This document shows, one piece after another, positions 3,370 to 40,611 of a stretch of 64,000 bases of DNA. How positions within the stretch are numbered: the first letter of the stretch is position 1; every line of letters starts with the position of its first letter. Origin of the DNA: Dehalococcoidia bacterium (GTDB lineage Bacteria; Chloroflexota; Dehalococcoidia; UBA2979); assembly GCA_965219085.1 (NCBI GenBank), contig OZ244720.1, forward strand, positions 2,304,001-2,368,000, in the 5' to 3' direction. The translations under genes were made by a program, and so were the position numbers. The notes under the pieces were generated by a model that saw only the letters and a list, made by a program, of their open reading frames with translations, made no database searches and was not told where the DNA came from.

Positions 3370-3585
3370 ATGAGCAGCGCGACGAGGATCATCAACGCGG
3401 TGCGTGGCTTGCGCGACGAAGCCGGCTTCGAGCCTGAGGAAGCCGACGCCATCGGCGTCGCCGCTGCTGAGGTAGCAGAGGCTGCGGCGGATCGGATGCT
3501 GATTCGGCTCGGTGCGTGGGTCCTCGGCGTAGTGGGCGTTGCCACTGCGATCATCATCGCGGTGATCCGGTTGAGCTTTTCCTAG
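3370..3585 (+). CDS. Small membrane-anchored protein, DUF1640/CCDC90-like
   Basis: LRDEAGFEPEEADAI head motif plus C-terminal hydrophobic helix. Confidence 0.55.
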   Translation: MSSATRIINAVRGLRDEAGFEPEEADAIGVAAAEVAEAAADRMLIRLGAWVLGVVGVATAIIIAVIRLSFS

Positions 3586-3613
3586 CCCCGACTCCGGTGA
3601 CGAATCCCGGTCG

Positions 3614-3657
3614 GCGCTATGCGCCGCGCATGACCTGCGCCGCCTCCACCATGTGCT
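3614..3657 (-). repeat. Duplicate of the metE 3' end (matches 3861-3904)
   Basis: 43/44 nt identical, including the stop codon; the one mismatch is synonymous (GTC/GTG Val). Confidence 0.9.
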
Positions 3658-3659
3658 AC

Positions 3660-3818
3660 ATCGGCCTCGCGACAGTCGAGGCGGCGGAGGCAGCAGCGGA
3701 TCGCATCGCAGATCGGCTGCTGATCTGGCTCGGTGCGTGGACGCTGGGGGTCGTGCTGGGCGTCGTCAGCATTGCCACCGCGATCATCACCGCGGTGATC
3801 CGATTGAGCCTGTCCTAA
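3660..3818 (+). pseudogene. Diverged 3'-half duplicate of the 3370-3585 small gene
   Basis: IGLATVEAAEAAADR...LGAW...ATAIITAVIRLSLS* versus IGVAAAEVAEAAADR...LGAW...ATAIIIAVIRLSFS*; N-terminal half missing. Confidence 0.8.
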
Positions 3819-3863
3819 CGCCCCTACTGCCTCGATCCCCGGCGCCGTACTCGCGCTGGTGCG

Positions 3864-6164
3864 CTATGCGCCGCGCATCACCTGCGCCGCCTCCACCATG
3901 TGCTCCAGCGCCGGCACCGTCTCCTCGTAGCGACGCGTCTTGAGGCCGCAGTCCGGGTTCACCCACAGCAGCCCGGGATCGAGCACCGACGCCGCCTCCT
4001 CGAGGCGGCCGACCATCTCGGCCGCCGACGGTACGCGCGGTGAGTGGATGTCGTACACGCCGAGCCCGAGGTCCTTGTCGTAGCCGCGGTCGCGGAAGCC
4101 GTCGAGGCTCTCCGCGTCGGAGCGCGCGTTGAACAGCAGCATCACGTCGGCCTCCATCTCGGAGACCGCGTCCAGCACATCGCCGAGGTGCACGTAGCAC
4201 ATGTGCGACTGGATCTGCGTGTCGTCGCGCACCCCCGCCGTCGCCAGGCGGAAGCACGGCACGGCCCAGCCGAGGTACGCCGGCCAGTCCGCGCGTCGCA
4301 GCGGCACGCCCTCGCGCAGCGCAGGCTCGTCGACCTGGATCACGCGGATGCCGGCTGCCTCGAGGTCCACGACCTCGTCGCGGATCGCGAGGGCGATCTG
4401 GCGGCACGTCTCCGCGCGGGGCTGGTCGTCGCGCACGAACGACCAGTTGAGGATCGTCACCGGCCCGGTGAGCATGCCCTTCACGGGGCGGTCGGTCAGC
4501 GACTGCGCGTACGTCGCCCAGCGCACCGTCATCGGGCCCGGGCGCGCCACGTCGCCGTACACGATCGGCGGCTTCACGTTGCGCGACCCGTACGACTGCA
4601 CCCACCCGAAGCGCGTGAACGCGAAACCGTCGAGTTGCTCGCCGAAGTACTCGACCATGTCGTTGCGCTCCGACTCGCCGTGCACGAGCACGTCGAGGCC
4701 GATGCGCTCCTGGAGCCGGATCACCTGCTCGATCTCGGCCTCGAGGAAGCCCTCGTACTCCTCGGCGGTGATGCGGCCGTTGGCGAAGCGGCGGCGCTCG
4801 CGCCGGATCTCCGGCGTCTGCGGGAACGAGCCGATCGTGGTGGTCGGGAACGGCGGCAGGCCGAGGCGCATGCGCTGCGCAGCACGGCGCTCCTCGACGC
4901 CCCCGTCGCGGTCGTAGTCGTCCGACGTGGTCGATGCGACCCGCTCGCGCACGGCGGGGTTGTGCGTCCGAGGCGAGTTGCGGCGCGACTCGAGCGCCGA
5001 GCGGTTCGCGGCGAGCTCATCGGGTGCGGCGTTCGGGTCGACGAGCGCGCGGCCGAGGACGGCGACCTCCTCGATCTTCTGGTTCGCGAACGCGAGCCAC
5101 GAGCGCAGCTCGGGGTCGAGGTCGGTTTCGAGGCCGAGCTCGATCGGCACGTGCAGCAGCGAGCACGACGCGCCGACGATGACGCGGTCCTCGCCGACGG
5201 CCGCGCCGATGTCGCGCAGCGTCGCGAGCGAGGCGTCGAGGTCGTTGGCCCAGACGTTGCGGCCATCGACGACGCCTGCGACGACGTGCTTGCCGCCCGG
5301 CAGGCCGTGGCGCTGCAGCAGCCCGAGGTTGCGCCGCCCGCGCACGAGGTCGAGGCCGATCGCCGCCACGGGCAGCTCGGTGAGCGTGCGGTACGCCTCG
5401 TCGACATTGCCGAAGTAGGTCTGCACCAGCAGCTTCGTCGAGCCGGCCGCCGTGGCCAGGCGCTCGTAGGCGCGGGTGAGCGCGGCCAGCTCCTCGGGTG
5501 TGCGGTCCTGCACGAGCACCGGCTCGTCGAGCTGCACCCACTGCGCGCCCGCCTCGTGCAGCAGCGCGAGCACCTCGGCGTAGACATCGAGCAGGCCCGG
5601 CAGCAGCGAGAGCAGGTCGAACCCGTCGTCGTGGTTGCCGTCGGCGTCGAAGCCGCGCGCGAGCAGCAGGAACGACACCGGCCCGAGCAGCACGGGCATC
5701 GTCTCGATGCCCGCCGCGCGCGCCTCGAGGTACTCGTCGAGCGGCTTGCGGTTGGCCAGCCGGAAGCGCGTGGCTGGCGACAGCTCGGGCACGAGGTAGT
5801 GGTAGTTGGTGTCGAACCACTTCACCATCTCGAGCGCGGTCACGTCGATGCCAGCGTCCTGCGCGCCGCGCGCCATGGCGAAGTAGGTGTCGAGGCCCCC
5901 GTCGCCGCCGTTGCGGTAGCGCGGCGGCGCCGCGTCGACCATCGCGATCGTGTCGAGCACGTGGTCGTAGTACGAGAAGGCGTTCGAGGGGATGAGGTCG
6001 ATCCCCGCGTCGCGCATGCGCGTCCACGCCTCCAGGCGCAGCGAGCGAGCGGTCGCCTCAAGGTCCTCGCGGCCCACTTCCCCGTCCCAGTAACCCTCGA
6101 CGGCGCGCTTGAGCTCGCGCCGCGCGCCGATGCGCGGATAGCCGGAGAGGGCGGACAGGGCCAT
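3864..6164 (-). CDS. metE: Cobalamin-independent methionine synthase
   Basis: GYPRIG, KWFDTNYHY, TTTIGSFPQT, RNDMVEYFGE, HMCY and NPDCGLKTR motifs. Confidence 0.97.
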   Translation of the reverse strand: MALSALSGYPRIGARRELKRAVEGYWDGEVGREDLEATARSLRLEAWTRMRDAGIDLIPSNAFSYYDHVLDTIAMVDAAPPRYRNGGDGGLDTYFAMARGAQDAGIDVTALEMVKWFDTNYHYLVPELSPATRFRLANRKPLDEYLEARAAGIETMPVLLGPVSFLLLARGFDADGNHDDGFDLLSLLPGLLDVYAEVLALLHEAGAQWVQLDEPVLVQDRTPEELAALTRAYERLATAAGSTKLLVQTYFGNVDEAYRTLTELPVAAIGLDLVRGRRNLGLLQRHGLPGGKHVVAGVVDGRNVWANDLDASLATLRDIGAAVGEDRVIVGASCSLLHVPIELGLETDLDPELRSWLAFANQKIEEVAVLGRALVDPNAAPDELAANRSALESRRNSPRTHNPAVRERVASTTSDDYDRDGGVEERRAAQRMRLGLPPFPTTTIGSFPQTPEIRRERRRFANGRITAEEYEGFLEAEIEQVIRLQERIGLDVLVHGESERNDMVEYFGEQLDGFAFTRFGWVQSYGSRNVKPPIVYGDVARPGPMTVRWATYAQSLTDRPVKGMLTGPVTILNWSFVRDDQPRAETCRQIALAIRDEVVDLEAAGIRVIQVDEPALREGVPLRRADWPAYLGWAVPCFRLATAGVRDDTQIQSHMCYVHLGDVLDAVSEMEADVMLLFNARSDAESLDGFRDRGYDKDLGLGVYDIHSPRVPSAAEMVGRLEEAASVLDPGLLWVNPDCGLKTRRYEETVPALEHMVEAAQVMRGA

Positions 6165-6290
6165 GGGAGGGCTCCTCGGGGCGTGGGGATTCGGGGCTCG
6201 CCGGGTGGGTACGACGATCGTAGCGCGGGCGGTCGTGGCGGGCTACGCGGAAGCGCGCCGCATTGCGAGGCACTCACGCGTTGTGGTGTC

Positions 6291-6296
6291 TATAAT
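6291..6296 (+). promoter_or_regulatory. Consensus -10 box TATAAT just upstream of hicA (probable leaderless transcript)
   Basis: TATAAT ends 6 nt before the ATG at 6303. Confidence 0.5.
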
Positions 6297-6302
6297 GGCG
6301 TC

Positions 6303-6545
6303 ATGCCGGGAACGCCGCTCCCGCAGCTACGTGCACGAGCCGGGAGCCTGACGGCACGCGACCTCGTGCGCGAGTTGCGGGCGCGAGGATGGGTCGAAAT
6401 GGAGCGGAGGCGCGGCAAGGGCAGCCACCGAGTGTTCCGGAAGCCAGGCAGGCGCCGGGTTGTGGTTCCCCGAAGGCCCGCGCGAGGGACGGTGTTCGGC
6501 ATCCTCGGGAGCATCGAGGCGGATGAGGAGGCGGATCATGACTGA
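6303..6545 (+). CDS. hicA: HicA family toxin
   Basis: LRARGW...GKGSHRVFRKP...VVVP motif; overlaps the hicB start. Confidence 0.85.
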   Translation: MPGTPLPQLRARAGSLTARDLVRELRARGWVEMERRRGKGSHRVFRKPGRRRVVVPRRPARGTVFGILGSIEADEEADHD

Positions 6546-7005
6546 AGAGGCGACGATCGAAGCGGGGGTACGGGCAGCGGTCGCTGCTCCGTACACGCGG
6601 CTCTTCACGCGCGAGGAAGACGGCAGGTACTCGACGAGCGTCCTTGAGCTGCCGGGCTGCTTCTCGTCCGGGGACACGCCCGAAGACGCGATGGAGATGC
6701 TGGACGAGGCGATCGAGTTGTGGGTCGAGGCGGAACTCGAAGATGGCCACGACATCCCGCCGCCGTCGCGGGCGGTAGAGTACTCGGGCCGCCTCACACT
6801 GCGCCTGCTCCCCTCGATCCACGAGCGGGCGGCGCTCCTCGCGCAACACGAGCGCGTGAGCCTCAACCGCTACCTCGCCAACGCGATCAGCTACTACGTC
6901 GGGCTTGGCAGCCCGCAGGCTACGCCCGCGACCGCCGCGAGCGGGCAGCCCGCGCTGATGGTGCGGGAGGAGCCAGGGAGGTGGGGTGTTACGAACGAGG
7001 GGTAG
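6538..7005 (+). CDS. hicB: HicB family antitoxin with C-terminal ribbon-helix-helix
   Basis: ELPGCFSSGDTPEDA; YSGRLTLRL..SIH..A...A..E.VSLN. Confidence 0.9.
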   Translation: MTEEATIEAGVRAAVAAPYTRLFTREEDGRYSTSVLELPGCFSSGDTPEDAMEMLDEAIELWVEAELEDGHDIPPPSRAVEYSGRLTLRLLPSIHERAALLAQHERVSLNRYLANAISYYVGLGSPQATPATAASGQPALMVREEPGRWGVTNEG

Positions 7006-7032
7006 CAGGCTCGTCGAGCCGTGCTTCTCTTG

Positions 7033-7860
7033 TCAGGCACACTCGGCGATGAGGTATAGCATGCCTGCGGCGGCGCTGTGGATCGCGAATTTCGCAATCG
7101 ACTCCGAGCCCGAAGCCGCACCATGCGCCGCGCCTTCCGAGCCCCCACGGAGGTGATAGAGCTTCTTGAGTGCCTCCACCACGTTCGGGTCAAGGTCATG
7201 CTTGGTGCGCAGTGTGTCGAGGGCGTGATCGAGTAGGATCTTCGAGTCGTTCAGGAGCTCTCGGCAGACTTCCTCGACGGCGCTCGCCGCAGCGTGAACG
7301 GCCTCCGGATAATCCGCTCCTCTCGCCGACGTAGACTTGGTCAGCGCGGAAACGAACTTCTCTTCAGCGTCGGCGAAGCGAGGATCACGAAGAAGCGCGT
7401 CGCGCGCCTCGTCGACGGCTTGGTTCTCGATATCTGTGCCCGCCTCAACAATGTCGTCGCCAGCGAACCGATAGGCGAAGCGTGACAATGTGAACGCTTC
7501 GTCACACCCGACCTTGAGGATGATGTACCCCACAGGCCACTGCGCGTTGGCAGCCTTGACGAGCAACTCCACGATCTCGAGGAACTCGCCGACGCTGTGT
7601 TGGCTGGTGAGCAGCCTTTGAATCAGATTTCGCCGGTTACTCCAGCTTGCATCCAAGAGTGACGGGTCGAGCGCTAGGGAGCCCCACACCACACGAAAGA
7701 AGTTCTGCGAATGAGAGCCATCGACTTCCCACATCTCGTGGATCACCGCCGCTAGTTGGTTCGCTAGCCCTGCGGGGATGGAATCACGGATGAGGCCAGC
7801 TTCTCCTCTTGCGAGGCGCGCCGACCTGCGCTCGATGAACGTTGTTCCTCCCGGGGTCAT
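7033..7860 (-). CDS. Hypothetical protein, AbiJ-NTD/HEPN-like putative defence protein
   Basis: Lower-GC ORF; C-terminus DYPEAVHAAASAVE...LYHLRG...AAHG resembles Abi/HEPN-type domains. Confidence 0.5.
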   Translation of the reverse strand: MTPGGTTFIERRSARLARGEAGLIRDSIPAGLANQLAAVIHEMWEVDGSHSQNFFRVVWGSLALDPSLLDASWSNRRNLIQRLLTSQHSVGEFLEIVELLVKAANAQWPVGYIILKVGCDEAFTLSRFAYRFAGDDIVEAGTDIENQAVDEARDALLRDPRFADAEEKFVSALTKSTSARGADYPEAVHAAASAVEEVCRELLNDSKILLDHALDTLRTKHDLDPNVVEALKKLYHLRGGSEGAAHGAASGSESIAKFAIHSAAAGMLYLIAECA

Positions 7861-7926
7861 GTCAGCTCCAGCCTGACCACCGTTGTCGGGGGATCGTCGC
7901 CAGGCCCAACTCGGCTGCCGCCAAAG

Positions 7927-11787
<3,861 letters not shown>

Positions 11788-11904
11788 GGGAGCCCCCGGA
11801 TACGGCGGGGGTCAGACGGATCGCAATGCGTGCCCGGCCCCCGGCGGCGAAGTCACTGCGAGAACTGATGAGGCGCGTATGCGCGCGAACCCGCAGGGGA
11901 GCAA

Positions 11905-11934
11905 ACGTTACCGAGATCGACTATCAGTTGTCAA
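11905..11934 (-). promoter_or_regulatory. Putative sigma70 promoter of nrdJ (TTGACA-18 nt-TAACGT)
   Basis: Perfect -35 at 11934-11929 and TAnnnT -10 at 11910-11905. Confidence 0.55.
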
Positions 11935-11982
11935 CGTGAGGAGACGCCTTAGCAATAAGGATAACGCGTCGGCCGAGGGGGC

Positions 11983-12042
11983 CTACCCGCTCCCCACGAT
12001 CGCCTCGAGGTCATCCGGCTGCTTCGGGATCGCGCCCGACAG
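11983..12042 (-). repeat. Diverged duplicate of the pepP 3' end (matches 12732-12791)
   Basis: LSGAIPKQPDDLEAIVGSG* versus LSGAIPKAPEDLEAIVGSG*; 51/60 nt identical. Confidence 0.92.
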
Positions 12043-12047
12043 CCGGC

Positions 12048-12419
12048 TCAGCGGATCTGCCGCACCCGGCCCGCCGACCCCCATGCCGTGTCCGCCGTCA
12101 GCACATCGGCGTCGAGGCGCTCGCCGAGAGCCATGCAGAGACGGTCCGCCAGCGACAGGTTCTCGCCGCGTCGCCAGCGGCGCGCGGCCCACTCGGCGTC
12201 CGCTTCCAGTACCGGCTCGACGCGGACCCCGTAGCCCGCCAGCAGCGCCCCGCGGGCCATAGGCCAGTCCCGGCCCGCTGCCAGCACCCACTGCGCTACC
12301 TCGGACCAGTTCGCGGCGCCGCACCTGGCGTCGCTGGCGAGCGCCGACTCGACCACGTCGGCGCCTTCCTCGCCATGCACGAAGGCGAGCACCGCCGACG
12401 CGTCAAGCACGACCGTCAC
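12048..12419 (-). CDS. vapC: VapC/PIN-domain toxin
   Basis: VVLDASAVLA...NWSEV...LSLADRLC...LTAD. Confidence 0.92.
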   Translation of the reverse strand: MTVVLDASAVLAFVHGEEGADVVESALASDARCGAANWSEVAQWVLAAGRDWPMARGALLAGYGVRVEPVLEADAEWAARRWRRGENLSLADRLCMALGERLDADVLTADTAWGSAGRVRQIR

Positions 12420-12661
12420 CCGGCGTCCTCGAGCTCAGCAGCGCGCCGCCGCTCCGCGAGCAGCTCGCCCACGAGGTCGAGACCGGCGAGGTCGGCGCGG
12501 ACGCGGTCGAGTAGCTGCTCGCGCGTCAGCAGGAGCAGACCGTCCGGCGTCTCGAGCAGCATGAGTTGCGTGCCCTCAACCAGCCCTCTGCGCGCGCGGA
12601 CCTCGGCGGGCACGACGACCCTGCCCCGGTCTCCCACAACGACGCTATACGTCCCATCCAT
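12416..12661 (-). CDS. vapB: AbrB/MazE/SpoVT family antitoxin
   Basis: VGDRGRVVVPAEVRARRGL; 4-nt overlap with vapC. Confidence 0.88.
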   Translation of the reverse strand: MDGTYSVVVGDRGRVVVPAEVRARRGLVEGTQLMLLETPDGLLLLTREQLLDRVRADLAGLDLVGELLAERRRAAELEDAG

Positions 12662-12731
12662 GGTGCGAGCGTACCACATCGTGATCGTTGGTGGGATCCG
12701 GGACGTGGTGGTGCGCAGGGCAGTCCGATGA

Positions 12732-14054
12732 CTACCCGCTCCCGACGATCGCTTCGAGGTCTTCCGGGGCCTTCGGAATCGCACCGGACAGCACGCGGTA
12801 GCCGTCGCGCGTGACCAGCACGTCGTCCTCGATGCGCACGCCGATGCCGCGCAGCCGCCGAGGCACGCCACGGATGCCGGGCGCGAAGTAGAGGCCCGGT
12901 TCCACCGTCAGCACCATGCCCGGCCGCAGCTCGACCGACTCCTCGCCCTCGCGGTAGCGGCCGACGTCGTGCACGTCCATGCCGAGCCAGTGCGAGGTGC
13001 CGTGCATGAAGAACGGCCCGAACGCGCGCTGCTCGATGAGCCCCGCGATGTCGCCGGACAGCACGCCGAGGTCGACGAGGCCCTCGGTGAGTACCTCGGC
13101 GGCCTTGTTATGCACGTCGTGGAAGCGCACGCCTGGCTTGATGAGCGCGGTCGCCTGCTCCTGTGCCTCCAGCACCAGTTCGTACACGTCGCGGGCGGCG
13201 GCGCGGAAGCGGCCGTCGACGGGGTAGGTGCGCGTAACGTCGGCGCCGTAGAAGTCGACCTCGGCGCCGGTGTCGACGAGCAGCAGCTCGTTGCGCGCCA
13301 TCTCGGCGCGGTTGGCGGTGTAGTGCAGCGTGCAGGCGTTCGCGCCGGCCGCGACGATCGAGGGGAAGCCGTCGCGCGGCGAGCCGAGCCGGCGGTACTC
13401 GGCCTCGAGGATCGCTTGCACCTCGTACTCATGCATGCCGGGCCGCGTCGCGCGCATCGCGGCCTCGATGCCGGCGCCGGTGATGTCGATCGCGCGCTGC
13501 AGGGCGGCGATCTCATCGCGCGACTTGATGACGCGCTGCGCCGCCACGAGCGGCGCGGGATCCATGATCGCCTCGATCGGGCGTGCGCCGCCCTGCGCGG
13601 CGGCGCGGCGCTGCGCCACGATCCGCGAGCACAGCCGCTCGACGCGCTCGTCGCTGCCGAGCGAGTAGTAGACGGTCCCCGCGCCCGCGAGCAGCTGCGG
13701 CAGCCGCCGTTCGAGCTCCTCGATCGGGTAGGCGGCGTCCGCGCCGAGCTCCTCGACGGCGCCGTCGACGCCGAGGCGGGCGCCCACCCAGACGGCCATC
13801 GCCGGGTCGTAGGGGCGCACGAAGAGCACGAACGGCTCGTCGTGGCCGGGCCTGAGCACGGCGACCGCGTCGGGCTCGTCGAAGCCGGTGAGGTAGTAGA
13901 ACGTCGAGGGCTGTCTGAACGGGTGCTCGACATCGCCGTTGCGCAGCGCGTCGTGCCCGGCCGCGAAGATCGCGGCGCTGCCCGGGCGGAGGCGTCGCAC
14001 CAGCCGCGACCGGCGTCGCGCGAAGGTCTCGGAGGGGAAGGCGTCGGAGGTCAT
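12732..14054 (-). CDS. pepP: Xaa-Pro aminopeptidase (aminopeptidase P)
   Basis: FRQPSTFYYLTG; DTGAE...ADVTRT; HGTSHWLGMDVHD; TVEPGLY; GVRIEDD. Confidence 0.95.
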   Translation of the reverse strand: MTSDAFPSETFARRRSRLVRRLRPGSAAIFAAGHDALRNGDVEHPFRQPSTFYYLTGFDEPDAVAVLRPGHDEPFVLFVRPYDPAMAVWVGARLGVDGAVEELGADAAYPIEELERRLPQLLAGAGTVYYSLGSDERVERLCSRIVAQRRAAAQGGARPIEAIMDPAPLVAAQRVIKSRDEIAALQRAIDITGAGIEAAMRATRPGMHEYEVQAILEAEYRRLGSPRDGFPSIVAAGANACTLHYTANRAEMARNELLLVDTGAEVDFYGADVTRTYPVDGRFRAAARDVYELVLEAQEQATALIKPGVRFHDVHNKAAEVLTEGLVDLGVLSGDIAGLIEQRAFGPFFMHGTSHWLGMDVHDVGRYREGEESVELRPGMVLTVEPGLYFAPGIRGVPRRLRGIGVRIEDDVLVTRDGYRVLSGAIPKAPEDLEAIVGSG

Positions 14055-28300: not shown

Positions 28301-28327
28301 GCCCTCATTCTGGCCGATCGGACAGCT

Positions 28328-29288: not shown

Positions 29289-30652
29289 GGTCACGTCCCT
29301 GCAAGTGGTGTAACAGTGCACCATCCTGATCATTTGCTAGCTGGCGGTCTGCAGTAGCACCTCCTCGCCTGAGGCGACCTCGGCCACGGCCGCCGGCAGC
29401 GGCTGCAGCATCGTCATGTAGCGCCGCCCCTCCGCCCACTCGTCGTGCTGCTCGGCGAGCACGGCGCCGACCAGCCGCACGACGGCGGCACGGTTGGGGA
29501 AGATGCCGACCACGTTGGTGCGCCGCCGGATCTCCTTGTTGAGGCGTTCCAGCGGGTTGTTCGACCAGACCTGCCGCCAGTGGACCGGGAAGGCCGTAAA
29601 CGCCAGGATCTCCGGCCCGGCGTCGGCGAGCAGCGCCGCGGCCTCGGGGAAGCGCTCGGCGAGCTGCTCCACCACGCGGGCGTGTTGGGCCTGCACCTCG
29701 GCCGCCGAGGACTGCTCGTAGATCGTCCGCACCGTCGTCGCCACCAGCTTCTCGGCGCTCTTCGGCACCCGGGTCAGCAGGTTGCGCATGAAGTGCGTGC
29801 GGCAGCGCTGCCAGGAGGCGCCGGCGAAGACCGTCGCGATCGCCTCCCTGAGGCCCTGGTGCGCGTCCGAGGTGACGAGCTCGACGCCGGACAGGCCGCG
29901 CGCCACGAGCCCGCGCAGGAAGCTCAGCCAGAACGCCCCGTCCTCGGAGGTGCCGACGTCGATGCCCAGCAGCTCGCGCTTGCCGGAGGCGTTGACGGCG
30001 GTGGCGACGACCACGGCCACCTGCACGACGCGGCCCTCCTCGCGCACGAGCTGGGTGAGCGCGTCGAGCCAGAGGTAGCGGTAGGGGCCCGAGTCGAGGG
30101 GCCGCTCGAGGAAGCTCGAGACGACCTCGTCGAGTTCAGCGCAGATGCGCGAGACCTGGCTCTTGGAGATGCCGTCGCAGCCGAGCGAGCGCACGAGGTC
30201 GTCGACGCGACGGGTCGAGACGCCCTCGACGTAGGCCTGCGTGACCACGGAGACCAGGGCGCGCTCCGAGCGCCGCCGCGGCTCGAGCAGCGAGGGGAAG
30301 TAGCTGCCCTCGCGCAGCTTCGGGATGCCCAGTTCGATCGTGCCCACACGCGTGTCCCAGCGCCGCGGCCGGTAGCCGTTGCGCCGGGTCAGGCGCGTCT
30401 CGCTGCGCTCGCCGTGGGCGGCGCCGATCTGCTCGGAGACCTCGGCGTCCATCACCGCCTGGGCGAGCACCGCGACCGCCTCGCGCAGAAAGTCGAGGTC
30501 CGCTCCGTCCGCCTGCTTGCGCAGCAGTTCCAACAAGTCCACGCTCTCCTTGACCACAGTCGTCCTCCTCCACGTGACTCTTCTTCTTGTGAAGGATGGC
30601 GCTGTGGTCTCCTACGTCTACCTCCTGTGACACCACTTCCTGGGACGCTACT
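29289..30652 (-). mobile_element. IS256-family insertion sequence
   Basis: Imperfect terminal IRs (GTCACGTCCCTGCAAGTGGTGTAACA / GTAGCGTCCCAGGAAGTGGTGTCACA); flanking direct repeat GAACTCAG at 29281-29288 and 30653-30660, extendable to 10 bp. Confidence 0.9.
29337..30557 (-). CDS. IS256 family transposase
   Basis: RNGYR; GVSTRRV; LDAL; SDAHQGL; WQRCRTH; NNPLERLNKEIRRR. Confidence 0.96.
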   Translation of the reverse strand: MVKESVDLLELLRKQADGADLDFLREAVAVLAQAVMDAEVSEQIGAAHGERSETRLTRRNGYRPRRWDTRVGTIELGIPKLREGSYFPSLLEPRRRSERALVSVVTQAYVEGVSTRRVDDLVRSLGCDGISKSQVSRICAELDEVVSSFLERPLDSGPYRYLWLDALTQLVREEGRVVQVAVVVATAVNASGKRELLGIDVGTSEDGAFWLSFLRGLVARGLSGVELVTSDAHQGLREAIATVFAGASWQRCRTHFMRNLLTRVPKSAEKLVATTVRTIYEQSSAAEVQAQHARVVEQLAERFPEAAALLADAGPEILAFTAFPVHWRQVWSNNPLERLNKEIRRRTNVVGIFPNRAAVVRLVGAVLAEQHDEWAEGRRYMTMLQPLPAAVAEVASGEEVLLQTAS

Positions 30653-30676: not shown

Positions 30677-33532
30677 TCACGCTCTGACGTACGCCGATCG
30701 GCGCGGCAGGTTCTCGGTGTGCGTGCACGGCGGATCCGAGGTGTACTCGGTGCACCCAAGGAACTGGCCGTAGCGCCCGTACCGCGTGACCAGCACGCCG
30801 ACGCCGCACGTCCGGCACACCGTCGGCGGGCGGGCGCACGAGGCGTTGGTGCACCTCGCGCGGCCGTCGGCGGGGATGGCGTAGCCGGCGTTGCAGTTGG
30901 CGCACCTCGGGGCGAGGTGCCTGCACATCGGGTGGTTCGAGCAGCGCAGGTTCCTGCCGCTCTGCGAGGCGACCAACTTGCCGCCGAGACACCGAGGGCA
31001 CTCGGGCGCGTCGTCTCCGGGGAGCTCGCCGAGCTGGCGCAGATCGGCGCCGTCGCGCCGTAGCTCGGTGACGAACGCCGACGGAAGCTGCGGGTCGGTG
31101 ACGAGGTAGGCGCCGCGCCGCGCGCGCGTCATCGCGACGTAGAACAGGCGGCGCTCCTCGGCGTGCGGGAACCCCGTCGCCGCGCCCGAGGGGAGCACGA
31201 GGTCCAGCAGCGGGTCGTCCTCGACCTGTGACGGGAAGCCGCGACGCTCGTTCTTGAGGTCGAGCACCACGGCGTAGTCGGCCTCGCGGCCCTTCGCGCG
31301 GTGCACGGTGCTGAACTCGACGCGGAGAGGCGCGACGCCCGCCGGGGGGCGCGCGCTGTTCCGGTAGCGGCCGAGGACGAGCACGGAGGGCGAGTCGTGG
31401 CGGTCGGCCGCGGCGCGCTCCTTGATGTCCTGCAGCGCGCGCCAGAGGCCGCGGCCGGGATCGCCGTCGGCGACGATGGTGACACCGTCGTCGCGGTTCT
31501 CGCGAGCCGACCGCAGCGGGCGCTGCGTCTGCGCGGGGTTGCGCTGCACGAAGGCCGTCGAGGGCCGGAGGATGCCGTCGGCGAAGCGGAAGGTCTGGCT
31601 GAGCGTGCGCTGCCGCACGTGGCCGAGGTAGTCGCCGCAGTTGCGCACCAGCCCCACGTCGCTCCCGGCGAAGCGGTAGATCGACTGCCAGTCGTCGCCG
31701 ACGAGGAAGTACGCGGTGTCCGGCCCCTTCAGCGCTTCGATCAGTCGCATCCGTCCCGCGGAGATGTCCTGGAACTCGTCGACGAGGATGTGGCGGTACG
31801 ACGCCCGCCACGCACCCTCGCGTATGAGCGCGGCGGCGCGGTTGATGAGGTCGTGGAAGTCGACCGCGTTCTCCTCGGCGAGCATCGCCTCGTAGCGCTC
31901 GCGCACCTGCTCGAAGACGGCGAGGAAGCTCTCGCTGCGCCGCCGGTCCGAGGAGGCGCGGGCGCGCTCGCGCAACTCGGCGGGCGAGGCGCCGCTGGTC
32001 TTCACGTGGTGGAGGAACGTGGTGAGCAGGCGCGCCAGCCACGAGATCAGCCAGCGGCCGAGCCGTGCGATGACGGAGCGCATCGGGATCGGCTCGAACG
32101 CGACGCCCGCCGCCTCGAGCTGCTGCTGCAGCACGTCGCGGAGCACGCCATTGCGATGCTGCCAGCTGTACGTCTCGATGAGTCGCGTTCCGAGTTCCGC
32201 GTGGATGCGGCGCTTCCATTCGACCCCCTCGGTGTAGCGCTTCCACGTCGGGGGCGGCCGGCCGTTCTCGTCGAGCGCGAAGTGCTCGATGTAGATGTCG
32301 TGGGCAGGGAGGTAGAAGTCCGGCCGGTACTGGCTGTACTCCTGGGTCGCCGTCCGCTCCGGGAACTGCTGCTCGTAGCGGAACGCGACGCCGTGCAGGG
32401 TCAGGAAGTTCGCGATCTCCAGCTCCTCGACGCTCTTCACGAGGTCGCCGCTGAGCGTGCGCAACTCCGAGTTGCGCACGTACTCGTAGTACTCGCCGGC
32501 GCTATTGAAGCTGAACGGTGACCGGTACGGCGCGCGGTGATGCGCGACGAAGTCCGTGACGACGCCCGACTGCCGCGGGTCGCCCAGGAGGTCCCGGAGC
32601 GCCTCGTCGACGGCGCGTTGGAAGGCCGCGTCGTCCTGAGCGAGCCGGGAGATGGTCGGGGCCACGCTGGTGTCGGCGATGACGCGGCGGCCGAAGGCGT
32701 GGAACGTGAACACGTTGGTCGCCTTGAGGTCGGCGGGGAGCCGCTGGCGCACCTCTGCCGCGGCGGCGGCGTTGAACGCCAGCACGAGGATCTCGTCGGG
32801 TGGCACGCCCTCGTTGCGCACGAGGTGCGCGACCTTGCCGATGATTACCGCGGTCTTGCCCGTGCCGGCGCCCGCGAGGACGAGCGTGGCGTCCTCGTCG
32901 GTCGCGATGGCGAGCGCCTGCTCGTCGGTGAGCGCGACGCGGAGCGCCGTGCGGGCGGCGGCCTGCACGGCTGGGACTCGCTCCGCCGCGAAGCGCTCGT
33001 TCGCACGCTCGCGCGCGGCCTCGAACGCCCCGGCGGGTTCGAGCGGCGCGAGCCGGCGGAGGGCGTCGGCGGCGTGCGGCGGCAAGTGGTCGCGTGCGAA
33101 CGCCCCGTGGCACTCCCGCACCACCGAGGCGAGCTCCTCGTCGAGCGTGCCGACCGCGGATCGACGCGCGTAGCGGCCGCCGTCGAGGAACCGACGCAGC
33201 GCGGTGTCGACCCGCACCAACTCGGGACCGACGGTCGAGGCGCGGTGGGCGGCCGCCGCGCGCGCGGCTTCGACCACCGCCAGGGCCGACGGCTCATCGA
33301 GGCCCCCGATCGTGTGCCGGGCGCCGTCGGCGGTGCGGATCGTGAGCCTGTGCCAGAACCAGGAGCGGCGCACCTCGATCGCGTCGACAGAGCCGACGGG
33401 GATCGCCGTCGGGGTGCTCGCACCTGCGTTGACGCGCAGGGTCTCGCTGCTGATCGAGATGGCCGAGGGGCCGGGCTGCCAGAGGCGATAGAGCGAGGCA
33501 CTGCGGGCGCTCGCGCGTGGAGTCATTTCCAT
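30677..33532 (-). CDS. UvrD/HelD (helicase IV-like) SF1 helicase with inserted nuclease-like domain and C-terminal zinc ribbons
   Basis: AGAGTGKT; DEFQD; GDDWQSIYRF; STVHRAKGRE; EERRLFYVAMTRA; KS..E..IANFL and YRPDFYL...IEHF; CxxC repeats. Confidence 0.9.
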   Translation of the reverse strand: MEMTPRASARSASLYRLWQPGPSAISISSETLRVNAGASTPTAIPVGSVDAIEVRRSWFWHRLTIRTADGARHTIGGLDEPSALAVVEAARAAAAHRASTVGPELVRVDTALRRFLDGGRYARRSAVGTLDEELASVVRECHGAFARDHLPPHAADALRRLAPLEPAGAFEAARERANERFAAERVPAVQAAARTALRVALTDEQALAIATDEDATLVLAGAGTGKTAVIIGKVAHLVRNEGVPPDEILVLAFNAAAAAEVRQRLPADLKATNVFTFHAFGRRVIADTSVAPTISRLAQDDAAFQRAVDEALRDLLGDPRQSGVVTDFVAHHRAPYRSPFSFNSAGEYYEYVRNSELRTLSGDLVKSVEELEIANFLTLHGVAFRYEQQFPERTATQEYSQYRPDFYLPAHDIYIEHFALDENGRPPPTWKRYTEGVEWKRRIHAELGTRLIETYSWQHRNGVLRDVLQQQLEAAGVAFEPIPMRSVIARLGRWLISWLARLLTTFLHHVKTSGASPAELRERARASSDRRRSESFLAVFEQVRERYEAMLAEENAVDFHDLINRAAALIREGAWRASYRHILVDEFQDISAGRMRLIEALKGPDTAYFLVGDDWQSIYRFAGSDVGLVRNCGDYLGHVRQRTLSQTFRFADGILRPSTAFVQRNPAQTQRPLRSARENRDDGVTIVADGDPGRGLWRALQDIKERAAADRHDSPSVLVLGRYRNSARPPAGVAPLRVEFSTVHRAKGREADYAVVLDLKNERRGFPSQVEDDPLLDLVLPSGAATGFPHAEERRLFYVAMTRARRGAYLVTDPQLPSAFVTELRRDGADLRQLGELPGDDAPECPRCLGGKLVASQSGRNLRCSNHPMCRHLAPRCANCNAGYAIPADGRARCTNASCARPPTVCRTCGVGVLVTRYGRYGQFLGCTEYTSDPPCTHTENLPRRSAYVRA

Positions 33533-33638
33533 GCGCGTGATTATTCCAGAGATCGCGCATGTGATTGAGTGCCGACCGCACGACACACGGCCCCGGGGCG
33601 CGGGGGCCTCGGGCTGCTCGGGAGACGGGAGCGAGGCG

Positions 33639-34970
<1,332 letters not shown>

Positions 34971-35025: not shown

Positions 35026-35937
35026 CTAGTTGGCGCGCGGGTGGGCCTGTTCGAAGACCTCGCGGAGGTGGCTGTCGGCGAGGCGCGTGTAGATCTGCGT
35101 CGTCGAGACGTTGGCGTGGCCGAGCAGCTCTTGCACGTCGCGGACGGAAGCGCCGCCCCGCAGCATGTGGGTGGCGAAGGAGTGGCGGAGGGTATGCGGC
35201 GTGACGCGGCTGCCGATCTCGGCGGCTTTCGCGTAGTTCTTGAGGATCATCCAGAAGCCTTGCCGCGTGAGCCGCTCCCCGCGCCGGTTCACGAACAGCG
35301 CCTCCTGCGGCCGGGCCTTGAGCAGCCTCGGGCGTGACTCGTCCAGATAGCGCTCCACGGCGTCCATCGCCTTGTCGTAGACGGGGATGGTGCGCTCGCG
35401 GTCGCCCTTGCCGATGCAGCGCACCGAACCGGGCCGCGGCGTGAGGTGCAGGCTGTCGAGGTTGAGCGAGACGAGCTCGGTGACGCGCATCCCGGTGGCG
35501 TACATCAACTCGAGCATGCTGGAGTCGCGGATCGCCTCGGGGGTGTCGGAGGTGAGGGGCTGCCGCAGGAGCGCGTCGATCTCCTGGGTGCTGAGCGGCT
35601 TGGGCGTGGCCTTGGGCGCGCGCGGCGAGTCGATCGAGGCGGTGGGGTTCTCGGTAAGGTCGCCGTGGTCGAGCAGATAGCCGCAAAACGACTTCACGGC
35701 CGCGACCTTGCGGGCGATGGTGGCCGGCGCGTAGCCGCGCTCGCCGAGCCAGCCGACGTAGCCGGTGATCAGGTCACGGTCGATGGAACTGGCCTTGGGG
35801 ACCTCGCCGTTGTCGGCGCGCTCGGTGGCGAAGGAGGCGAAGCGGGTCAGGTCGTTCCGGTAGGCGTCGATGGTGTTCCGGGAAGATCCGCGCTCGGCGG
35901 ACATGTAGTGCAGGAACGCGTCGATCCGATCCTCCAC
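35026..35937 (-). CDS. xerD: Site-specific tyrosine recombinase XerD
   Basis: YATGMRVTEL; GKGDRER; LTRQGFW; HTLRHSFATH; LLGHANVSTTQIY. Confidence 0.9.
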   Translation of the reverse strand: MEDRIDAFLHYMSAERGSSRNTIDAYRNDLTRFASFATERADNGEVPKASSIDRDLITGYVGWLGERGYAPATIARKVAAVKSFCGYLLDHGDLTENPTASIDSPRAPKATPKPLSTQEIDALLRQPLTSDTPEAIRDSSMLELMYATGMRVTELVSLNLDSLHLTPRPGSVRCIGKGDRERTIPVYDKAMDAVERYLDESRPRLLKARPQEALFVNRRGERLTRQGFWMILKNYAKAAEIGSRVTPHTLRHSFATHMLRGGASVRDVQELLGHANVSTTQIYTRLADSHLREVFEQAHPRAN

Positions 35938-36049
35938 CCGGGGCCCCCCACCACGCTCACCGGCTCGATCCTGCGCGGCGCGAGTATACAGGGACGTGAT
36001 CTCGGCTGGGGAAAATCGCGTCTGCCGCAAATCGGTTATTTCTCGATTG

Positions 36050-36754
36050 TCAAGCGGGTTTGCCGCCCTCGTCGGGAAATGCGCCCTCTCCAATCAGCGG
36101 CACGAAGCGGCAGCCGCCCAGCGATCTCCGCCGCAGCCGCTCGCCGCGCTTTGTGATCACGAGCAGCTCCTGCTCCGCCCGACGCCCCACCGGGATCACG
36201 AGGCGCCCGCCCTCCGCGAGCTGGTCGACGAGGGTCGTGGGCACCTCGGGCGCGGCGGCCGTCACCACGATCGCGTCGAACGGTCCGTCGTCCGGCGCGC
36301 CGAGGGCCGTACCGGCCGGCCGACAGCGCACGTTGCGAATCCCGAGGCGGCGCAGCGTCGCCCGCGCGCGGCGGAGCAGCGCGCCGACGCGCTCGACGGT
36401 GACGACCTCGCGCGCGAGGCGCGCGAGCACGGCCGCCTGGTAGCCGGATCCGGTACCGAGCTCGAGCACGCGCTCCTCGCCGTCGAGGGCGGCGGCCTCG
36501 GACATCATGGCCACGATCAGCGGCTGCGAGATCGTCTGCCCGCTACCGATCGGCAGCGCGCCGTCGTCGAAGGCGTGGCGTCGCAGGCCCGCCGGGACGA
36601 ACTCGTCCCGTGGTACGGCGCGCATCGCGTTCAAGACGCGCCGGTCGCGGACGTGGCGGCGGATGAAGCGCAGCATGCGCTCCTCGGCGCGGTCGCGCCC
36701 AGCGTCTGCCGGGCTGGGTCCTGCGCCGTTGCCGCCGCGCGTGCCGGGGGCCAT
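36050..36754 (-). CDS. pcm: Protein-L-isoaspartate O-methyltransferase
   Basis: GQTISQP; LELGTGSGYQAA; FDAIVVTAA; RFVPL. Confidence 0.94.
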   Translation of the reverse strand: MAPGTRGGNGAGPSPADAGRDRAEERMLRFIRRHVRDRRVLNAMRAVPRDEFVPAGLRRHAFDDGALPIGSGQTISQPLIVAMMSEAAALDGEERVLELGTGSGYQAAVLARLAREVVTVERVGALLRRARATLRRLGIRNVRCRPAGTALGAPDDGPFDAIVVTAAAPEVPTTLVDQLAEGGRLVIPVGRRAEQELLVITKRGERLRRRSLGGCRFVPLIGEGAFPDEGGKPA

Positions 36755-36773
36755 CGAGTCGGGTCCGGCGCCG

Positions 36774-38660: not shown

Positions 38661-38748
38661 GCGTCCAGTGTAGCGCCGCGTGGAAGTAACCCCGCCGCTG
38701 CCGATGGCGGTGCGAGCCTGCTAGGCTGTCTTGTGTAGTGGGGCTGGC

Positions 38749-39534
38749 ATGACGGACAACGCCGCCGAGCGACCGTGGCTGCGGTTCCGCATCACGGGGA
38801 ACGATCCCGGCGGAGTGGATGTCCGCGCACTGGCGGACATCCTCGAGGAGTTGGCCCGCGCGACCCGCTTCATCGCGGACGAGCTGATCGGGCTCGGTCG
38901 CCCGCGCGGCGCGCTGAGCCAACTCGAGCGCTCTCTCGCCGCGTTTCGGGTGGTCTCGGTCTCGCTCGGGAGCCTCGATATGGCACTGGCGGCACCGCCG
39001 CTGGCGGCGACAGGAGACGAGGCCGGGCAAGAGGCCGACTCGCTCACGCCCGACATGGTGGCCGGGGCGCTCATCGAGGAGATCGAGGCGGTGTCGCGGG
39101 TCGAACTCAGCCCTCTGGGCGGGTACGAGCGAAGGCACGCCGTCGAACGCCTGATGTGCTCCGCAGCCCGAATCGGCGACTCAGTCGATGTGGCGCACTG
39201 CCCGGCTGAGGGCCGCGACATGCGAGCGCAGGTGCAGTTGACCCGGGCGGTATTGGTGACTGCCGGACTCACGTCGGCGCCGCGCGCCGACTCGAACCGG
39301 AACGCGGGGAAGCAAGTGGTGTGGCTGCGGCGGCAGTTGCACGTGCGCGACATCGAACGGCAGGGCGGCCTCGCCCACCCCCCCCAATCCATTGAGGAGT
39401 TGGCCCGCGAGCAGGGCTTGCTCGACAGGCCGCCCGCCGACTACCCGACGCTGCTCGCTGATCTGTGGGAGACCGAGGAGGAGGCGGCAGCTTTTCGCGA
39501 GGAGATCCGGAGAGGGCGTAGCGCCTCGCAGTGA
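38749..39534 (+). CDS. Hypothetical protein with antitoxin-like C-terminus, coupled to a PIN toxin
   Basis: GTGA overlap with the PIN gene; C-terminal SIEELAREQG...LWETEEEAAAFREEIRR. Confidence 0.55.
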   Translation: MTDNAAERPWLRFRITGNDPGGVDVRALADILEELARATRFIADELIGLGRPRGALSQLERSLAAFRVVSVSLGSLDMALAAPPLAATGDEAGQEADSLTPDMVAGALIEEIEAVSRVELSPLGGYERRHAVERLMCSAARIGDSVDVAHCPAEGRDMRAQVQLTRAVLVTAGLTSAPRADSNRNAGKQVVWLRRQLHVRDIERQGGLAHPPQSIEELAREQGLLDRPPADYPTLLADLWETEEEAAAFREEIRRGRSASQ

Positions 39535-39956
39535 CCACGGGACAGCCCCGCGACTTCGTGGTTGCTGACACATCGGTGCTTTCGTACTTCACACGCCGGG
39601 TGCCACCCGAGCCTGCGTATCGTGAGATGTTGGCGGGCCGGACCATCGGGCTCTCGTACTTCGTCCGCGCCGAATTAGAAGGCGCGACCTGGGATCCGCC
39701 GCAGCGTGACCGTCTGAATGCCGTGTACGAGGAGTGCATCAATCTTGCTCCGGGCACCGCGACTACGATCTGGTACAACAGGGGTCACGCCATGCGCAGC
39801 CAACTCAAACTGGCCCGGGACGTCGGTGACATGGATCTCTGGATCATCGCCTACGCGGCCGAGTACGCAGTCCCGTACATGTCGCACGATCGCAGGGCGT
39901 GTGAGATAGCCCGCGCCCTCGGCGTTGAGGTGCTCACAGCGCTCGGCCAGGCCTGA
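39531..39956 (+). CDS. PIN-domain (VapC-like) toxin
   Basis: VVADTSVLS; AEL; DLWIIAYA; SHD. Confidence 0.8.
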   Translation: MTTGQPRDFVVADTSVLSYFTRRVPPEPAYREMLAGRTIGLSYFVRAELEGATWDPPQRDRLNAVYEECINLAPGTATTIWYNRGHAMRSQLKLARDVGDMDLWIIAYAAEYAVPYMSHDRRACEIARALGVEVLTALGQA

Positions 39957-40096
39957 TCCCGCGCGCGAGTAGCGCGCGCGGTGACGTCGCGGCTCACACG
40001 TACGGAGGCACGAGCCGAGCGTGCGCGCCGTAGCACCGCCGTCGCCGCACGGGGTATCCTCGGTGTGCGACCCCGCGACTTCGCCGGAGGAATCGG

Positions 40097-40333
40097 ATGC
40101 CGGAGCAGTACAAGCTGCCGTACACCCTGAGAGCGCCATCCGAGGAGACCGAGGATATGTACCTGGCGGAGGTGCCCGTGCTCCCGGGTTGCCGGGCGTG
40201 GGGCGCGACCGCCGAAGAGGCTCTGCATAACCTCGAAGGCGTGGCTGCGGACTTCATCGCCTCCTGCGAGCAGCACGGTGATCCCCTTCCCGCAGCCATT
40301 GCCGAAGCCGGGGAGCTCGTAGTCGCCGTGTGA
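40097..40333 (+). CDS. hicB: HicB family antitoxin (short form)
   Basis: YLAEVPVLPGCRAWGATAEEAL. Confidence 0.88.
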   Translation: MPEQYKLPYTLRAPSEETEDMYLAEVPVLPGCRAWGATAEEALHNLEGVAADFIASCEQHGDPLPAAIAEAGELVVAV

Positions 40334-40539
40334 CCTATCGGGATCTGGCCCGCAAGCTGAGAGCCCTCGGCTGCGAGTTCGATCGCCAGTCGCGCGGCTC
40401 TCACGAAATCTGGCGTAATCCCGCCAACGGCGCGCGGACGACTGTCCCGAATTGGGGAGGCAAGGACCTGCGTACCGGGACGATCCGAGCGATCGTGCGG
40501 GATCTTCGCGTGGACACGAGGGCCTTCGACGAGGCCTGA
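40330..40539 (+). CDS. hicA: HicA family toxin
   Basis: KLRALGC...RGSHEIW.NP...TTVP...GTIRAI. Confidence 0.9.
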   Translation: MTYRDLARKLRALGCEFDRQSRGSHEIWRNPANGARTTVPNWGGKDLRTGTIRAIVRDLRVDTRAFDEA

Positions 40540-40611
40540 TCCCGCCCACCGCATCGCATTGACCGCGGCCGCGCCCCTCCATACGCTCGCCGGGCACGAG
40601 GAGGCCCCAGC

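Follow-up and report, generated by a model that had tools for sequence, protein, structure and literature searches.

Phages, ICEs (integrative and conjugative elements) and integrase-less cis-mobilizable elements can integrate into the 3′ ends of genes, where they are bounded by direct repeats. These elements carry a replacement gene end on their own side, the displaced native end lies on the far side and tandem accretion can occur. This report describes small cassettes that adjoin the ends of housekeeping genes in the one-contig genome of a Dehalococcoidia bacterium (G000; 3.31 Mb, 70% G+C). No integrase was found in the cassettes scanned, and a second copy of the last 30–130 bases of the adjoining gene lies beyond them. 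Five such pairs of gene tails, at metE, pepP, gap, a helicase gene and a PIN-domain toxin gene, had been pointed out by a first-pass annotation of a stretch of 64,000 nucleotides (bases 2304001–2368000, termed the window; coordinates refer to it unless given as genome positions).

Three other described systems are close to this arrangement. Insertion with long target duplication has been described for restriction-modification (RM) systems, including in the actinobacterium Clavibacter, the mechanism being unknown (Nobusato et al. 2000, as cited by later papers; Furuta, Abe and Kobayashi 2010, PMC2853133). A 2013 review gives it for RM systems only (PMC3874152). For the displacement of C-terminal ends at rhs, contact-dependent inhibition and type VI secretion system effector-immunity loci, homology-facilitated illegitimate recombination (HFIR) has been proposed (Kirchberger et al. 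2017, PMC5361080). When homology was present on one side only in conjugation of E. coli, the end of lacZ was duplicated in 56 of 60 clones (109–950 bp in the 14 that were sequenced). The authors ascribe this to a single crossover with a circular molecule, an outcome commoner than true HFIR (Amarir-Bouhram et al. 2011, PMC3240628). The arrangement thus has precedents in insertion with long target duplication (PMC2853133) and in C-terminal displacement (PMC5361080), to which it is closely similar.

The comparison set consists of 18 congeneric species (G001–G018). Identity of shared genes to G000 is ~85–90% in G003, G007, G008, G014, G016 and G018 and ~77–82% in the remaining species. A codon-usage scan of our own gave 2841 genes covering 85% of the genome. 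Gene identities were derived from Pfam; NCBIfam was run on ten cargo and neighbour proteins and yielded nothing useful. The protein-family scans cover the cargos of G000, and cargos at the sites of relatives were compared at the DNA level. Repeat pairs were taken from a blastn self-scan of G000. Gene tails were scanned with a 36-nt window, requiring at least 29 matches within 5 kb downstream. Logan contigs over 3000–13200 served as an independent check of the sequence (contigs only).

All five pairs are found where they had been reported, and four of them are far beyond chance, whereas the 14-nt PIN pair is weak in G000. Matching positions amount to 43/44 at metE, 51/60 at pepP, 32/42 at gap, 44/48 at the helicase gene and 14/14 at the PIN gene. 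In every case the extra copy is located downstream of the gene and past the cargo, as had been claimed. The repeats measure 44–50 nt at metE, 61 nt at pepP, 42 nt at gap, ~60–67 nt at the helicase gene and just 14 nt at the PIN gene. Direct repeats of more than 30 bp are therefore present at the first four sites and absent from the PIN pair.

The arrangement is not confined to the window. A genome-wide search of the kind that the first-pass annotation had proposed, with gene tails compared to the 5 kb downstream, reveals an excess: 99 of 2833 gene tails have a match, compared to 3 in the reverse-complement control. Many of the 99 are tandem paralogues. Tandem arrays of three to seven paralogues of ~590–630 aa each are located at genome positions 1018–1027 kb, 1213–1229 kb and 2231–2242 kb, and these arrays account for many of the tail-to-tail matches of this first scan. 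The blastn self-scan contains 320 short isolated direct-repeat pairs. In a strand-aware sorting of these, the other copy of a gene tail lies in intergenic DNA downstream of the gene in 20 pairs and upstream in one. Sixty pairs bracket stretches of at least 200 bp, and ~20 of these 60 repeat-flanked cassettes in 3.3 Mb are tail-type insertion scars. Duplications of gene 5′ ends, considered as a mirror class, were dismissed: a first sorting gave 9 versus 1, but the shift control shows no excess (7 versus 7.7).

The inner end of the repeat lies 0–6 nt past the stop codon of the duplicated gene in 16 of 220 pairs, where 300 random shifts give a mean of 1.35 and a maximum of 6, and the wrong-strand control gives 2. 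Expressed for the tail pairs, the proportion is 16/21; a uniform spread of insertion points across the native spacer would give 5.2. Furthermore, single-copy empty sites are found in relatives at five sites (pepP, the helicase gene and genome positions 1103144, 2828420 and 441512), with the flanking alignments overlapping by approximately the repeat length. Being genome-wide, polymorphic among relatives and accompanied by clean empty sites, the pattern is a general phenomenon, as the first-pass annotation had supposed, and not five coincidences.

The origin of the two copies is best seen at pepP, where the following features are present.

12732–14054, minus strand: Xaa-Pro aminopeptidase gene pepP (Pfam Peptidase_M24 and AMP_N); real tail at 12732–12792.
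12416–12679, minus strand: cargo, MazE/AbrB-type antitoxin gene (Pfam MazE_antitoxin, E 4.4e-5, slightly below the curated cut-off).
12048–12419, minus strand: cargo, VapC-type PIN toxin gene (Pfam PIN, E 2.5e-10).
11983–12043, minus strand: displaced pepP 3′ end, terminating exactly at TAG; 51/60 match.

The cargo comprises two adjacent small genes on the pepP strand, a PIN and a MazE-like gene, as is characteristic of a type II toxin-antitoxin (TA) pair. In an alignment with ten relatives the real tail of pepP is the outlier allele. It encodes KAPED, where close relatives have KQPDD, and it deviates from them at seven of the nine mismatches. The displaced copy has the states of the close relatives and is identical to the real tail of G018 at 60 of 63 positions. 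Judged from this alignment, the tail attached to the gene resembles a foreign allele, and the copy beyond the cargo has a native look. Evolution of both copies as coding sequence, as had been claimed, is supported at pepP, and codon reading confirms the reported proportions of synonymous mismatches (1/1 at metE, 5/9 at pepP and 4/4 at the helicase gene).

An insertion in place with long target duplication would proceed by staggered breaks 30–130 nt apart that are filled in, and both copies would start out identical and native. A pristine displaced copy beside an outlier functional tail is not predicted by this process, nor is a break at the stop codon in 16 of 21 cases. The same holds for the pooled mismatches of four tails. 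Among 41 mismatch columns, the state of the copy occurs in the real genes of relatives in 33, the state of the real tail in 32 and both states in 24. Third codon positions account for 22 of the 41 columns. A uniform-mutation null predicts 16% coincidence, but this null is too generous in a G+C-rich genome with related comparators. The pooled states also back the claim of coding evolution across the four tails, and they lend moderate support to two pre-existing alleles as the source of the mismatches.

The pepP site is empty in G014 (flank overlap 68 nt), G007 and G003; these three and the distant species have one pepP tail and no cargo. In G018, G016 and G008 an antitoxin gene without a toxin gene is present, together with a decayed tail remnant of 25–27 nt that has a common derived T. 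The copy in G000 lacks this T. The insertion in G000 is therefore probably an event separate from that in the three relatives. Homologues of the vapBC pair were found at 80 loci in other taxa (63–78% amino acid identity), mostly in Acidimicrobiia bins, with a few loci from other phyla; the closest homologues of the toxin are from Acidimicrobiia metagenome bins. An antitoxin homologue precedes vapC at all 80 loci, and none of the 80 is adjacent to pepP. Flanking repeats as an intrinsic part of vapBC were rejected, since only one of 74 testable loci reached 30 bits (inverted control: 0).

Chance similarity, or an artefact of assembly or strain chimerism, is an extremely unlikely cause of these structures. 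The PIN pair is short and partly native to hicA, and the genome is community-derived with close relatives present. A contig joint connecting 12010 to 12770, which corresponds to the empty-site form of pepP, occurs in four runs. This joint has a shorter side of just 24 letters and includes 10 unlike letters, and it probably stems from a co-occurring relative. On the other hand, identical Logan contigs span both copies at metE (3003–4219) and at pepP (11603–12843) in three runs of one study, which may be the source sample. A run from a second study covers 11603–12686 in three pieces with 1–13 differences. Sponge and marine metagenome runs contain small shares of the window as well, which carry no weight here. 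The genome-wide, shuffle and shift controls argue against chance, and occupied orthologous sites exist in other species.

The helicase site illustrates repeated use of one target. Its features are as follows.

30677–33670, minus strand: UvrD-type helicase gene with C-terminal Zn ribbon (Pfam); repeated tail at 30693–30752.
29289–30652, minus strand: IS256-family insertion sequence (IS), transposase at 29337–30557 (Pfam Transposase_mut, E 4e-132).
28612–29241, minus strand: cargo open reading frame (ORF) of 209 aa (longest start), no significant Pfam or NCBIfam match.
28475–28550, minus strand: cargo, tRNA-like gene of 76 nt with anticodon TGA and no long variable arm (ARAGORN; Rfam 69 bits).
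28313–28379, minus strand: displaced native helicase 3′ end; 44/48 match.

The reported repeat is present but longer than first described, with ~60–67 nt (30693–30752 and 28313–28379) and a 7-nt insertion in the copy. The displaced tail remains attached to the ATG (28300) with which the downstream gene 27404–28300 begins. The repeat ends 16 nt short of the helicase stop codon, and the last five codons of the working helicase, after CGATCGGC, derive from the cargo side. G014 has a clean empty site: its helicase stop codon shares bases with the next start codon (ATGA), and there is a 59-nt overlap between the two flank alignments. As a separate observation, the 7-nt insertion brings the displaced tail in frame with the downstream gene, and an upstream ATG at 28402 could provide this gene with an N-terminal extension (27404–28402 in all) of former helicase codons.

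The anticodon of the tRNA-like gene corresponds to the serine codon UCA and its CCA end is encoded. A normal 90-nt tRNA-Ser(tga) is present elsewhere in G000, and no counterpart of the cargo gene was found in the loci of 17 relatives that were scanned. The IS256-family element has eight more full-length copies in G000 and is flanked at both ends by its own 10-bp target duplication CTGAACTCAG. It therefore arrived later and is not the maker of the 60-nt repeat. The helicase cargo had been listed among the integrase-free cassettes; it does contain a transposase, which belongs to this secondary insertion, and no integrase was found in it.

At the same point G008 and G018 have a different cargo of ~480 bp, bounded in G008 by an exact 23-nt repeat. 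The boundary CGATCGGC is common to all three insertions (G000, G008 and G018), and the repeat length at this site alone ranges from 23 to ~65 nt. The cargo of G008 and G018 is 67–71% identical in DNA to a G000 cargo that follows a different gene (genome positions 1103194–1103635) and is accompanied by a separate 50-nt repeat. Reuse is thus seen at the helicase site and, apparently through separate events, at pepP. In distant congeners the helicase gene is unmatched at this locus, with the neighbour of gap located ~470 bp from the enolase gene, and a helicase of 72–74% identity is encoded elsewhere.

Reuse of one boundary by two unrelated cargos would also be expected of remnants of integrase elements, or of cassettes moved in trans by a site-specific recombinase, with the repeats as attL and attR and a replacement gene end on the element. 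The vapB(C) cassettes at pepP in G000 and in G018, G016 and G008 are related but seem to have arrived separately; they point in the same direction, as does the tRNA-like gene in one cargo. In 16 of 21 tail pairs the block of identity runs to the gene end (0–6 nt past the stop codon). A block of identity that begins within a gene and extends to its end is classically the mark of elements inserted at the 3′ ends of genes. Even so, this explanation is distinctly unlikely. No integrase family was matched in any of the G000 cargo proteins scanned, in line with the first-pass annotation (the cargos of relatives were compared as DNA only). Just two tyrosine recombinases (PF00589) are encoded in the genome. 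The one in the window (35026–36093) scores as XerD above the cut-off and forms part of a block that all relatives conserve. Eight large serine recombinases are located elsewhere in the genome and none is linked to any tail site; to our knowledge such enzymes leave no long direct repeats. The target genes number ~20, and inspection by eye of 19 junctions revealed no shared motif (a motif search was not run). Finally, the repeat length varies from 23 to ~65 nt at one site.

Outside the window, six of eight two-gene cargos are recognised TA pairs (three VapBC, HigB-like with a helix-turn-helix (HTH) protein, HicAB and MNT/HepT). Single-gene cargos encode Fic (twice), NYN, DUF3800, a STAND-like ATPase, a GNAT protein with a weak PIN_3 match and an EEP nuclease. 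The cargos are mostly type II TA pairs, Fic and other selfish or defence genes. Neither restriction nor modification families were matched by Pfam in the scanned cargos, and no transposase was found in those of G000 apart from IS copies. The cargo toxins are predicted RNases or Fic proteins and not DNA cutters, which does not favour staggered breakage of the target in place. One repeated transposon family as the common source was ruled out, as the cargos, IS copies apart, are mostly unique in the genome.

Sites outside the window differ in what they suggest about the two copies. Site 2828420 is empty in G018 (80-nt overlap). Its displaced copy resembles the allele of G003 and G008 and has native-like bases past the stop codon, and the real tail resembles the allele of G018. 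Site 1103144 is empty in G014, G007 and G016 (45–54 nt) and site 441512 in G007 and G008 (91–93 nt). The pattern of donor and recipient alleles is mixed at 441512 and 1591483. A common origin of both copies from the target is consistent with the sequences at the helicase gene, metE and 1103144 and is contradicted at pepP and 2828420. A duplication of this architecture is also present in another species: in G014 (L095 2202–2296 and 3089–3400) the first ~100 nt of native downstream DNA occur twice around an insert of ~800 bp. It lies downstream of the orthologue of the gene at genome position 2827024.

The metE and gap sites have a layout of their own, with two related units each.

3864–6164, minus strand: metE, cobalamin-independent methionine synthase (Pfam Meth_synt_1 and Meth_synt_2, E 1e-121 to 1e-149); real tail at 3861–3910.
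3630–3818, plus strand: ORF B, a 5′-truncated paralogue of ORF A, with a possible ATG inside the metE tail copy.
3611–3663, minus strand: displaced metE 3′ end (last 14 codons, stop and 3 nt more); 43/44 identical to 3861–3904.
3370–3585, plus strand: small ORF A, 71 aa with a hydrophobic C-terminal segment, convergent with metE (codon-usage scan).
26295–27314, minus strand: gap, glyceraldehyde-3-phosphate dehydrogenase (Pfam Gp_dh_N and Gp_dh_C); real tail at 26295–26349.
25741–26248, plus strand: unit TA2, a small ORF and an HTH_3 antitoxin-like gene at 25979–26248 (Pfam HTH_3, E 1.8e-11).
25591–25641, minus strand: displaced, diverged gap 3′ end; 32/42 match.
24992–25594, plus strand: unit TA1, a family-less small ORF and an HTH_3 antitoxin-like gene at 25328–25594 (Pfam HTH_3, E 8e-9).

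Both sites had been described as cargo between two tails. The repeat pairs are real (the gap pair has a local score of 34, compared to a maximum of 25 in 300 shuffles), but what the two tails enclose is in each case a paralogue of the unit beyond the second tail. At metE the order is ORF A, displaced tail, paralogue B, real tail and metE, with ORF A as the unit past the displaced tail; no family was found for ORF A in Pfam or NCBIfam. The repeat is part of a gapped tandem unit (3457–3663 and 3675–3910) with 175 of 207 aligned positions identical. At gap, TA2 is the cargo between both tails and TA1 lies beyond the displaced tail. In both units a family is recognised for the HTH partner alone.

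This layout could result if the gene end, together with its neighbour, was locally duplicated in tandem and the copies then diverged, without foreign DNA. The arrangement tail-X′-tail-X is as expected for such a process. No third metE tail copy is present past unit A (score 14, null mean 14.3), and past the outer gap unit only an 11-nt match is found (p ~0.06). The units and the tails of gap have diverged equally: TA1 and TA2 are 77% alike (25061–25578 and 25750–26261, 382/498 positions) and the tails 76%. At metE, however, the tails are 98% alike and the remainder of the unit ~80%. In G007 the alignment at gap is unbroken from 25599, in the displaced tail, to 28347, through TA2 and gap, and no TA1 adjoins. 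G014, G007 and G003 have two small-ORF units at metE but no tail copy that could be detected, and G016 has a single unit. G009, G011 and G004 have one unit at gap that is 82–86% identical to TA1; in G001, G002, G010, G012, G015 and G017 similarity begins at the gap stop codon. Moreover, at pepP, at the helicase gene and at most sites genome-wide the cargo is unrelated to the DNA past the second tail, and random endpoints would not cluster at stop codons. Local tandem duplication is accordingly a very unlikely explanation of the pattern, and at gap the units appear to have arrived one after another at a single tail, which fits better than one local duplication.

The fifth pair is located at a site with the following features.

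38749–39956, plus strand: ORF of 261 aa without a family match, followed by a PIN-domain gene at 39531–39956 (Pfam PIN, E 7e-7).
40097–40545, plus strand: hicB (40097–40333) and hicA (40330–40539), both assigned by sequence likeness, and the second copy of the 14-mer (40532–40545).

The names hicB and hicA are based on reading the translations. The Pfam families HicB_lk_antitox and HicA_toxin match a different pair elsewhere, and NCBIfam has no match here. The 14-mer is expected 0.04 times in the window, and two matches occur in none of 100 shuffles. Most of it (GCCTGATCC, then a slipped GCC) already terminates hicA in G007, where the PIN gene is absent. As the 14-mer is largely native to hicA, the copy in G000 is not clearly a displaced PIN tail, and the reading of this pair as such is weak. 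The block 38684–40020 is unmatched in G007 and G003 and is also absent from G018, G016 and G008, in which ~60 unmatched bases are found instead. As a flanking repeat for this block, no more than a weak likeness of ~12 nt was detected.

Real displaced PIN tails of 70–115 nt exist in relatives at this locus. In G009 the PIN gene is followed by ~950 bp, a 115-nt copy of the PIN tail and then native downstream DNA. In G011, G012 and G001 hicBA lies directly against a PIN tail of 70–98 nt and the body of the PIN gene is gone, which represents the deletion type. Duplication and deletion, both of which are predicted by capture through gene-end homology, thus occur at one locus.

Further observations in the window concern neighbouring genes. 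An acyl-CoA dehydrogenase gene seems to be split over the ORFs 40612–40737, 40849–41397 and 41394–41765 and may be frameshifted; its middle piece matches only positions ~95–240 of family profiles of ~380 residues. A 27-nt unit, CCCGCGGGGTATCCCCGCATCAGTGGA, is present in three (near-)perfect tandem copies at 10708–10788 (and at 11467–11493), in frame, within the class II ribonucleotide reductase gene (7927–11787, minus strand). The alignments of relatives break exactly there, and similar units are found at several further genome positions. An 18-nt unit with at least nine copies (2192–2425) forms a Thr/Pro/Asp/Glu-rich repeat near the 3′ end of an 834-aa ORF (93–2597, plus strand).

Homology-anchored capture without an integrase, either by single crossover of a circle or by HFIR, best fits a boundary at the stop codon, copies that resemble alleles, scanned cargos that lack integrases and the occurrence of both duplication and deletion. 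We hold this reading with about even confidence. Both routes had been named at the outset; single crossover has an experimental precedent (PMC3240628), and the mechanism in this genome is inferred from sequence comparison. A fragment from a related lineage would carry the end of a conserved gene and the accessory genes that follow it there. This fragment may circularise, for example by end-joining, which is plausible since G000 encodes Ku (one gene). One homologous crossover would then join the circle to the resident gene end. Alternatively, homologous pairing at one end would be combined with an illegitimate join at the other. Either route would result in an intact gene with a partly imported tail, followed by the cargo, the displaced native tail and native downstream DNA. 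The repeat would span from a variable point within the gene to the stop codon, where it is proposed to end because the homology of donor and recipient ends there. Paired tails would permit precise loss, leaving clean empty sites, as well as re-acquisition by ordinary homologous recombination and the addition of a further unit at one tail (metE and gap). The circular intermediates, the involvement of RecA and Ku and the direction of each event are steps that we infer.

Several points weigh against capture. Both helicase copies in G000 have the states ACCTCGGA and GCACACC, which are absent from G014, G018 and G008. The suggestion of a foreign allele is not borne out at this site, where duplication in place, or conversion at a later time, explains the tails better than import does. 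Both metE tails likewise have a GCA codon that is found in G000 alone. At 1103144 it is the real tail that is conserved, and G018 has a decaying displaced copy, the outcome to be expected of a plain duplication of the target. The allele test has less force than the binomial figure suggests, since third positions at 70% GC toggle between G and C and the relatives are not independent. A change in the real tail likewise leaves the state of the copy to be seen in relatives, and selection that acts on nothing but the real tail could also give the third-position excess (22/41). Pairs of the head type are not enriched (7, null 7.7), although the capture model is symmetric. The model leaves the start of the cargo right at the donor stop codon unexplained, even where tails are 94–97% alike, and 30–60 nt of homology is short for RecA. 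Neither a donor nor a circle or junction read was seen in the data, which comprise contigs only, and no back-joining joint is present among the 15 of 102 contig joints listed. The gene calls are crude.

Some of these points speak directly for insertion in place with long target duplication, namely the G000-specific states shared by the helicase and metE tails and the decay at 1103144. Additionally, several pairs are 99–100% identical, a 124-aa PaREP1-like cargo family occurs at two different targets with a local repeat at each, and the architecture and empty sites match the criteria published in PMC2853133. This process is a serious rival and may account for some sites; as the general explanation it is unlikely, given the evidence at pepP, in the pooled mismatch columns and at the stop codons described above.

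Homology-anchored capture could be extended to a minimal mobile element, a TA or defence cassette for which a coding-selected housekeeping gene tail of 30–130 nt serves as attachment site. Such an element would leave as a circle by recombination between its tails. In other lineages, homologous recombination of the host would bring it to the corresponding gene, which would be restored each time. We regard this extension as doubtful. If it were true, the stop boundary, the allele-like copies, the repeated occupation of pepP and the helicase gene and the empty sites would all reflect one cycle.

TA and defence modules are the variable, addictive genes found between core genes, and the means by which chromosomal TA and small defence modules spread when they have neither transposase nor integrase is a long-standing question. 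The ~20 datable tail scars, for which sister species offer empty sites, other cargos and decayed forms, make this question directly testable. If homology at gene ends suffices for capture and re-export, some of what passes for target duplication in other bacteria may have arisen as alleles recombined. Displaced gene tails, short as they are, could then be used as markers of past gene flow, and a gene 3′ end that lies orphaned in the intergenic DNA downstream of the gene itself could serve as a flag in annotation.

Compared to phages and ICEs, the cassettes of G000 differ in that the scanned cargos encode no integrase, the targets are many and unrelated and the cargos are small (0.2–2.3 kb). 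Insertion with long target duplication is alike in the small unit without mobility genes (here with the exception of the helicase cargo and its IS256-family element), in direct repeats of more than 30 bp and variable length, in the single copy of the repeat at the empty site of a related genome and in cargo of the post-segregational-killing type. It differs in that the cargo there is an RM system, whereas TA pairs, Fic and similar genes are found here. Furthermore, the inner boundary here is at the gene stop codon, the copies look like different alleles at least at pepP and dozens of instances are present in one 3.3-Mb genome. In architecture the cassettes thus agree with long target duplication; what sets them apart is the type of cargo and, at some sites, the origin of the two copies, which does not look common. 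Descriptions of TA cassettes inserted in this mode were not found in the literature searched, subscription papers aside; more examples with cargos other than RM systems may be given in the case tables of Furuta et al.

In C-terminal displacement, as described by Kirchberger et al., a module anchored by homology to the upstream gene pushes the old 3′ end downstream and leaves strings of orphans. It shares with the present sites the lack of an integrase and successive insertions at one site. What is displaced there are variable toxin domains and immunity genes; here it is short conserved housekeeping tails that encode the same residues, and many unrelated genes are affected. The single-crossover circle of Amarir-Bouhram et al. 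is alike in that the insert is flanked by a gene-end duplication of variable length. That system used an E. coli laboratory plasmid with long homology (PMC3240628). The structures reported here are natural, with repeats of 23–130 nt and a putative circular intermediate. Integrase-free gene gain via duplicated tails is little known, and it is unusually frequent in this genome.

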